Below are positions 14,328 through 14,602 of a stretch of 64,000 bases of DNA, in pieces. Source of the DNA: Escherichia phage vB_EcoM_G17; the sequence record MK327931.1; one strand, given 5' to 3'. Each line of letters starts with the position of its first letter. Positions within the stretch are counted from its first letter, which is position 1. Below the pieces are notes generated by a model. The model was not told the DNA's origin. It saw only the letters and a list, made by a program, of their open reading frames with translations, and ran no database searches. Position numbers and translations under genes: made by a program.

Positions 14328-14602
14328 TTAAAAAAAGTAGTACTGGATACTGTTGCAACAATATCCTACAGTGACCATTTTAGCTAAAGGTGAACTGAGC
14401 ATACTCGAAGTACCTCTCACTGTATTGTACCATAATAAGTCCTTCAGCTATTCAGAACTGAATACTTACATCCTACGTCTAGGTTTTAAATGTGCACTAG
14501 TTGTAATGTGTAGGCACATACGGGTCTGCTTTTAAGCTACTGATTCGGGAATTACAACCTCCCCTAGTGATTCAGTACTGAATACGACCGTCTACATTTA
14601 TT

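Follow-up and report, generated by a model that had tools for sequence, protein, structure and literature searches.

A candidate structured RNA behind two palindromes in the tRNA region of Escherichia phage vB_EcoM_G17 and its jumbo phage relatives

Introduction

What are two nearly identical palindromes doing in a stretch of phage DNA that is free of open reading frames (ORFs)? The question is raised by a locus close to the tRNA-Thr gene of Escherichia phage vB_EcoM_G17, in the 64,000 nucleotides (nt) of sequence record MK327931.1 that were analysed here as a whole and are called the window below. A preliminary description of the window had pointed to two near-identical 14-bp palindromes, and both are there and exact: ATTCAGAACTGAAT at 14450-14463 and ATTCAGTACTGAAT at 14570-14583, 120 nt apart from start to start with a gap of 106 nt between them (the plus-strand text reads CTATTCAGAACTGAATAC from 14448 and GATTCAGTACTGAATAC from 14567). 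They had been taken for paired operators of a dimeric regulator or for processing sites of a non-coding transcript running toward tRNA-Thr. We propose instead, at a probability of roughly 0.6, that the minus strand from about 14596 to 14330 specifies a non-coding RNA, about 265 nt long and compactly folded, as the 3'-terminal part of an early unit of tRNAs and small ORFs, and that the palindromes are probably invariant boxes of this RNA and not protein-binding operators. The core of about 170 nt would consist of a three-way junction (helices P1, P2/P2a and P3), hairpins P4-P6 and a kissing loop between P2a and P4, and the RNA would end at its own stem and U-run just ahead of the next promoter.

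Results

Conservation of the palindromes and of the surrounding block

With at most one mismatch, the pattern ATTCAGNNCTGAAT is found four times in the window, where 0.25 occurrences would be expected, and its two exact copies are both at this locus. They are also the longest perfect palindromic forms of a CAGTACTG-type motif in the window. The central CAGTACTG alone is unremarkable here, with 23 copies in the window against 0.6 expected from composition. Judged from the sequences, what goes beyond chance is that the two boxes match at 16 of 18 positions (GTATTCAGTWCTGAATMR) and that they are conserved in a second phage genus. In the minus-strand RNA, the palindrome at 14570-14583 becomes box 1 (AUUCAGUACUGAAU) and that at 14450-14463 becomes box 2 (AUUCAGUUCUGAAU).

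For the 301 nt that hold the palindromes there are matches in 36 phage records, all of them from Asteriusvirus jumbo phages, the genus to which the window also belongs, each with at least 93% query coverage and 92-100% identity (100% at the locus for phAPEC6 and Sharanji, 94% for 121Q), and the block from about 14596 to 14330 is full-length at 92-100% identity in all 36. Aligned over 12 Asteriusvirus sequences, it opens at ...AAAUGUAGACGG (about 14596) and extends to the U-run; these two limits define the candidate RNA (14330-14596, minus strand), its 5' limit being the start of the conserved block and its 3' end the U-run. The edges of the block coincide with recombination junctions: the upstream 71-aa ORF (ORF71) is swapped for another ORF in JNE01 and Turkey5, and two unrelated sequence variants occur downstream of the promoter at 14327 among relatives. 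The flanks are mosaic or down to about 70-80% nucleotide identity, and the neighbouring proteins are 66-80% identical (ORF141, 66% at the amino-acid level).

The second genus came to light through a 16-mer scan of IMG/VR, which found a copy in Klebsiella phage RaK2 (contig L044, 4482-4670). There, GUAUUCAGUACUGAAUCA directly follows the stop of an unrelated 68-aa ORF and GCAUUCUGUACUGAAUAGCAGAAGG stands 121 nt further on. The sequence between the RaK2 boxes is not alignable to the window by BLAST; the architecture is the same, the boxes are identical or nearly so, and the helices are rewritten. This version, that of the RaK2 group (Alcyoneusvirus), is found in nine records including RaK2, and the RNA is present in all 45 listed genomes of the two genera.

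A covariance model of the RNA, R1, finds one copy per genome and matches the window at 14425-14603 on the minus strand with 177.8 bits. Queried with the boxes and an E-value limit of 10, blastn returned Asteriusvirus and Alcyoneusvirus only, and 16-mer and gapped-pattern scans of IMG/VR gave nothing beyond 121Q and RaK2. A metagenome scan yielded one further Asterius-like contig and one chance match within a coding region, and ORF71 homologues led to one more Asterius-like copy (L101). Model R1 found no copy in the tRNA region of Erwinia phage Kaldavass (40 kb), in Erwinia phage Hallingskeid or in 20 chance loci, nor in a 50-kb stretch of GAP32 that is not the tRNA region of that phage. The RNA is absent from the divergent contig L100 (Logan SRR13001969) despite a 58%-identical ORF71 homologue, the R1 search giving only a weak match in a coding region there; one gene further downstream of that homologue, L100 has a different ORF-free gap of 290 nt (4832-5120).

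The block is not coding, because close relatives differ in it by 1-nt insertions or deletions (indels). No ORF is conserved, and the mini-ORFs entered by annotators are inconsistent or missing, in agreement with the ORF-free stretch first described. It could still be asked whether the locus is a chance by-product of AGTACT richness in a non-functional spacer, or a gene for a small protein. CAGTACTG is indeed frequent, at about one copy per 2.8 kb, and some GenBank records do carry mini-ORFs here; but these differ in strand or frame from record to record and are broken by the 1-nt indels, the block is more conserved than the neighbouring genes, and its architecture is kept across genera with compensatory changes. 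We regard both possibilities as highly improbable.

A covarying fold on the minus strand

The structural model was examined on 15 distinct sequences (12 Asteriusvirus, 3 Alcyoneusvirus), for which the inter-genus alignment was made by hand, with N in place of gaps to hold MAFFT to the register. Over these sequences the 64 proposed pairs are paired in 96.7% of cases and 17 of them are altered on both sides. When the 3' partners were slid by 1-3 columns as a control, pairing was 31-41% and only 1-3 pairs were altered on both sides, and none of 500 shuffles matched the observed values. RNAalifold, working from the alignment alone, recovers P1, P2, P2a, P3, P4, P5 and P6 (P6b), and the single-sequence minimum-energy fold of the window, the kind of structure prediction that the preliminary description had called for, holds the same hairpins. 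The minus strand is the functional one, because its many G-U pairs would be A-C on the other strand. The locus therefore has a conserved secondary structure with compensatory changes on one strand, as seen in two lineages and a hand-made alignment. All RNA coordinates that follow are on the minus strand.

The 5' strand of P1, ACGGUC (14586-14591), pairs with 14520-14526 (GAC-CCGU) and closes the three-way junction; three of its six pairs are altered on both sides, including UA/AU within Asteriusvirus (the types are AU/GC, CG/UA/UG and UA/AU/CG). Inside the junction, P2 would pair ACUGAAUC (14569-14576) with GAAUCAGU (14539-14546) over 8 bp and enclose P2a. It is unvarying save for an A.A in three sequences, the window among them, and a G-U in one, and it is perfect in most relatives. 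The P2a hairpin (GGGGA, 14560-14564, with UUCCC, 14547-14551) has two of its five pairs altered on both sides between the genera. In the small hairpin P3, AGCUU..AAGCA (14527-14538), the GC/CG core is unvarying, one C-G becomes U-G and the outermost pair is weak. Hairpin P4 (14490-14519; AUGUGCCUA..UAG(U)GCACAU) has 9 bp and a 1-nt bulge; seven of the nine pairs are rewritten in the RaK2 group (GUACUUGUG..CACAA(C)GUAC), where one more change occurs within the Klebsiella group, and pairing holds in 98.5% of cells.

The loops of P2a and P4 kiss, which gives the RNA a tertiary structure: GUUGUAA (14552-14558, P2a loop) pairs with UUACAAC (14500-14506, P4 loop), and the corresponding strands in the RaK2 group are GUUGCG and CGCAAC. 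Alignment columns 50 and 109 are UA in 12 sequences and CG in three, columns 51 and 108 are AU in six, GU in six and GC in three, and half of the Asteriusvirus sequences have the G-U variant. Downstream of P4, a single-stranded UUAAAA (14484-14489) is identical in all 15 sequences and is followed by the P5 hairpin, CCUA-GACG-UAGG (14472-14483), with two of four pairs altered on both sides (CG/UA and UA/CG/UG types). For the RaK2 P5 loop, pairing with ACGCGU in the manner of P1 was considered and dropped, the partner being missing from the other Klebsiella phages. The last hairpin of the core, P6 (14435-14469), has a lower stem GUAAGU/ACUUAU, an upper stem of UUCAGU (14457-14462) with GCUGAA (14443-14448), and a loop (U)CUGAAU(A) at 14449-14456. 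Its upper stem also varies in concert: columns 156 and 169 are AU in 12 sequences and UA in three, a compensatory change of the RaK2 group, and columns 158 and 167 are UG in 14 and UA in one (JP4).

Three further features of RaK2 lie at L044 4810-4850, 4895-4985 and 5135-5255. They are a third copy of the P6-type hairpin (GUAAG..UUUCAGUACUGAUAGCUGGAA..CUUAC), which precedes the terminator, and two more stretches without ORFs that are richer in G+C, follow TATAAT promoters upstream of tRNA-Leu and have no Rfam match; these stretches may be further non-coding RNAs.

The boxes within the proposed RNA

Conservation at each box covers more than the palindrome. The 18 nt of box 1, GUAUUCAGUACUGAAUCA (14568-14585), are the same in both genera save for one change in EJP2, an A to G (ACTGAG) that gives a G-U pair. 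Box 2, GUAUUCAGUUCUGAAUAGCUGAAGG (14441-14465), has a central UA in most relatives, and a TT takes the place of the corresponding TA in the window, BF17 and CMSTMSU. In the RaK2 group its 5' part reads AUUCUG: the DNA is ATTCTG..CTGAAT, with the compensating T to A in the downstream AGCWGAA (columns 156/169), while a G to A in JP4 turns a U-G pair into U-A.

Why should boxes of an RNA be palindromic at all? The RNA holds three AUUCAGU-like segments (1a, 1' and 2a) and three copies of the complement CUGAA(U) (1b, 2b and 2'), box 1 being 1a followed by 1b and box 2 being 2a followed by 2b, and the palindromes arise because of these repeated copies. The 3' half of box 1 (1b) would pair with the downstream GAUUCAGU (1') to form P2, and the 5' half of box 2 (2a) would pair with the downstream AGCUGAA (2') to give P6 its upper stem. 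What remains, 1a and 2b, is a pair of complementary halves, and the P6 loop and the junction strand are therefore likely to form a pseudoknot. The candidate strand, UAUUCAGU (14577-14584, the 5' half of box 1), is complementary to the P6 loop (14449-14456) over eight bases in 12 of the 15 sequences and over seven in the other three, including the window; all of these bases are unvarying, and the duplex would be worth -6 to -7 kcal/mol. Most likely, on this complementarity, the pseudoknot would clamp the 5' junction to the P6 loop.

The 3' domain and the presumed end of the RNA

Downstream of the core, P7 (UGGUAC, 14427-14432, with GUACUA, 14338-14343) closes a branched 3' domain that contains P8 (14418-14424 with 14367-14373), the P9 hairpin (14397-14416) with a loop of the UUCG type, and the 9-bp P10 stem (14345-14366). 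P9 shows a compensatory change of A-U to G-C and P10 one of G-C to A-U, and across the domain (P7-P10, 14338-14432) 98.8% of cells are paired in Asteriusvirus. Homodimer energies from RNAcofold were set aside as uninformative, since it is the palindromic P10 stem that brings the gain, an effect to be expected of any hairpin. A run of seven U residues (14330-14336; U4-U7 in relatives) is, as read from the sequence, the presumed 3' end. A consensus terminator scan gives no call at this site: the P10 stem lies 8 nt from the U7 run, and what directly precedes it is the 6-bp P7 and a C. The simple scan is silent because the U-run follows the closing helix P7 and not a plain hairpin.

A rival view is that the element acts in cis in the 3' untranslated part of the transcript and is not a free RNA: it could be a large structured terminator, a stabiliser of the upstream tRNA/ORF transcript against 3' exonucleases, or a switch in which two mutually exclusive folds, a box 1 x box 2 duplex and P2 with P6, set read-through into the tRNA-Thr unit. 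In every lineage the element starts at most about 10 nt from the stop codon of whichever ORF lies upstream, it ends in a stem and a U-run, it has two alternative folds of near-equal energy, and CAGUACU recurs in the 3' strand of P7 beside the U-run. However, a core of about 170 nt with a kissing loop and invariant unpaired boxes far exceeds what a terminator or stabiliser needs, and the next unit has its own consensus promoter. In RaK2, moreover, the 3' part is unrelated and a simple terminator is found about 230 nt further on, so that core and terminator are not a conserved unit. We consider a cis-acting role unlikely. A riboswitch was also considered and rejected, as the element follows ORFs rather than preceding them and the downstream unit is served by its own consensus promoter.

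The AGTACT motif and the case for protein-binding sites

A case for selection at the level of DNA comes from the window as a whole. AGTACT is its most over-represented hexamer (130 copies against 21.5 expected, z = 23), and CAGTACTG is its most frequent 8-nt palindrome. Copies of AGTACT are evenly spread, with codon phases of 49/19/34 and intergenic copies as well (sites of the motif are, for example, at 12615, 12650, 15802, 16262, 16671, 31107, 31900, 35143, 35182 and 44219). It is dense in the RaK2 and Erwinia phage loci too, as a clade-wide DNA motif, and N4-cytosine methyltransferase genes are annotated in relatives. Three near-identical sigma-70-type promoters on the minus strand, TTGACTAAATAGTTCAGTACTG(A)TA(T/A)AAT at 15795-15823, 16255-16283 and 16665-16692, have CAGTACTG in the spacer, where it gives an extended -10 TG; the same layout is found in RaK2 (L044, about 7430 and 7640) and at no fewer than eight sites of Hallingskeid (L094). 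Elsewhere, at about 12590-12665 on the minus strand, two copies of CAGUACUG lie 35 nt apart downstream of a 94-aa ORF; one of them falls in a loop of 25 nt, closed by an 11-bp hairpin stem (GAUAGCUUCUA/UAGAAGCUAUC) with ACUUUUUU after it, a terminator-like arrangement.

Some dimeric protein that reads the motif TTCAGTACTGAA could accordingly have its two best sites of the window in the boxes, as a regulator of early promoters or a nucleoid or modification factor, with the RNA fold as a secondary matter. The enrichment of AGTACT, the presence of CAGTACTG in all codon phases and between genes, the position of TTCAGTACTG(A) directly before the -10 hexamer of the promoters at 15823, 16283 and 16692 and of others in RaK2 and the Erwinia phages, and the rank of the boxes as the longest perfect palindromic forms in the window would all fit such a protein. 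As in the operators of dimeric repressors, the sites are perfect 14-bp dyads, and their spacing of 120 bp is about 11.5 helical turns. Unlike such operators, they neither overlap nor flank a correctly oriented promoter: the boxes have no -35/-10 context and lie in a presumably transcribed region, 123-256 nt behind the nearest promoter. Half-site symmetry is not kept either, the variants of the boxes breaking the DNA dyad and keeping the RNA pairs, with one compensatory change outside the palindrome, and the conserved 18-25 nt at each box reach asymmetrically past it. Finally, the Erwinia phages have the motif abundantly without the RNA, so that motif and RNA are separable. Paired operators, one of the two readings first offered for the palindromes, are thus disfavoured, and we think it quite improbable that the boxes are in the main sites for a motif-reading protein. 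The boxes were also tried as promoters and rejected: TTCAGTACTGA is followed by ATCACT and ATAGCT, hexamers that do not resemble a -10, and a conserved -35 is absent.

Locus layout and transcription unit

Genes in this part of the window point along the minus strand (89 of 93 in a crude gene calling). In that direction the order is ORF71 (14603-14818) with its stop, the ORF-free stretch with the palindromes, the stem and U7 run (14366-14330), a promoter, two mini-ORFs and tRNA-Thr (14007-13934). The promoter, TTGACA-16-TATAAT (14327 to 14300), is of sigma-70 type with 12 of 12 consensus matches and serves the next unit (small ORFs and tRNA-Thr). The palindromes had been placed just downstream of it. 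Being a minus-strand promoter, it fires toward lower coordinates and away from them; its -35 hexamer is 123-256 nt downstream of the palindromes, with the stem and U-run in between. The other reading first offered, a non-coding transcript toward tRNA-Thr, holds in the main: a conserved, covarying structured RNA does lie on the strand that runs to tRNA-Thr, but it is not driven by the 14327 promoter, and its own stem and U-run together with that promoter set it apart from the tRNA-Thr unit. Nothing points to the palindromes as processing sites.

The promoter at 15795-15823, with TTCAGTACTGA in its spacer, is the likely promoter of the upstream unit. This unit would comprise tRNA-Ser, tRNA-Met, tRNA-Asn, ORF85, ORF133, ORF71 and the RNA, whose co-transcription with the rest is likely; the scan called no terminator-like site between the 15823 promoter and the RNA. 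Processing within the A/U-rich leader would give rise to the 5' end of the RNA.

The neighbouring small ORFs have no Pfam domains, and their PHROGs matches are only to families of unknown function. Small ORFs of the tRNA region belong to paralogous families (13134-13917 and 16280-16633 on the minus strand; L044 3370-3780): ORF141 and ORF121 are in a common family, PHROG 17453, ORF71 and ORF133 are alike at the N-terminus, and several have an acidic E-E-x-F-Q motif in common. They evolve much faster than the RNA. Directly 5' of tRNA-Thr there is an 11-bp inverted repeat, GUAAGAUGACC ... GGUUAUCUUAC (about 14022-14072, minus strand), which may form a hairpin for processing or stabilising the tRNA precursor. 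With the unusual anticodon ACT that ARAGORN assigns to it, tRNA-Ser (15693-15784, minus strand) would read AGU, the first codon of AGT-ACT. Sharanji is listed with a phage tRNA adenosine deaminase (PMC11895373).

Discussion

Several observations weigh against a folded RNA with palindromic boxes. Only two lineages carry it, and the compensatory changes therefore reflect few independent events; the two genera were aligned by hand to fit the helices, which inflates the pair counts; and at full length the fold has a z-score of only -2.0. Neither P2 nor the pseudoknot ever varies, and both are read from complementarity. No dedicated promoter for the RNA was found. The core of the boxes, (T)TCAGTACTG(A), is over-represented throughout the window and occurs also in promoter spacers, so that selection on the boxes at the DNA level is possible. 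Folded as single sequences, 121Q and RaK2 prefer a 15-bp duplex of box 1 with box 2, and this fold comes within about 2-3 kcal/mol of the proposed one without the pseudoknot.

In a further explanation the RNA would be a self-organising particle in which the boxes do work as palindromes: the box duplex and the combination of P2, P6 and pseudoknot would be two mutually exclusive folds, or the boxes would pair in trans into dimers or multimers, as in GOLLD and ROOL. The core might then be a scaffold, a decoy or even a catalyst while the host is taken over. A variant is that the 15-bp duplex, identical in sequence to the genome-wide DNA motif, may titrate a protein that reads the motif. We hold this explanation, too, to be rather doubtful, and prefer the fold with P2, P6 and the pseudoknot because the RaK2 change at column 156 would put a U.U mismatch in the box duplex and is compensated in P6.

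How does the proposed RNA compare with known systems? The tRNA cluster of phage T4 gives rise to small stable non-tRNA RNAs of unknown function (species 1 and 2, rnaC/rnaD) from the same early transcripts as the tRNAs. The likeness is that of RNAs encoded in or beside the tRNA genes of a lytic phage, a loose analogy; the present RNA is longer, has a kissing loop and palindromic boxes and comes after small ORFs. GOLLD and ROOL are large, ornate RNAs of phages that are often encoded near tRNA genes and in whose assembly self-complementary contacts matter. They are likewise phage-borne and elaborately folded, and the palindromic boxes parallel their self-complementary contacts, whereas the present RNA is two to three times smaller, belongs to jumbo phages of Enterobacteriaceae and has no Rfam match. 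Kissing loops and H-type pseudoknots are a further comparison; in the RNA I/RNA II pair of ColE1 and at the dimerisation site of HIV-1, kissing takes place between molecules, in antisense and dimerisation devices. The pairing of P2a with P4 is a similar Watson-Crick loop-loop contact of 6-7 nt, and the palindromes could pair in cis or in trans, but the covarying kissing loop is here within one molecule. Lastly, small bacterial RNAs derived from 3' untranslated regions are usually 50-150 nt long, with a simple seed and Hfq-binding module, and share the terminator of the mRNA. The present RNA resembles them in starting just past a stop codon, in having an A/U-rich leader suited to RNase E and in ending at the stem and U-run of its unit; it differs in its multi-helix core with tertiary pairs.

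These are functional analogies and not relatives, and the RNA is new in the sense that it is outside the Rfam families. Rfam 15, searched with the whole window at the gathering threshold, gives six tRNAs only; at E-values up to 10, the region 13800-14900 gives tRNA-Thr and noise far below threshold, and the RaK2 copy is likewise without a match. ARAGORN finds seven tRNAs in the window and no tRNA or tmRNA within 14330-14600, and the GenBank records examined have no annotated non-coding RNA at the locus other than tRNAs. 121Q, PBECO4, phAPEC6, RaK2 and K64-1 rank among the largest coliphages and Klebsiella phages. In Rak2-like jumbo phages more than 80% of the genes are without a known function (PMC7247149). 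RpoD-like early promoters have been predicted in general terms for the relative CBB (PMC5259590), and the papers on phAPEC6, Sharanji and CBB report no such RNA and no promoters with this motif.

With the present analysis, a covariance model and a concrete structure exist for this RNA, and the misreading of its palindromes as operators is corrected. Because it is more conserved than the protein genes nearby and is present in every one of the listed genomes of both genera, the RNA very likely does something important early in infection. Our best guess is a stable RNA that would act as a folded particle, binding protein or serving as a scaffold, in the takeover of the host.

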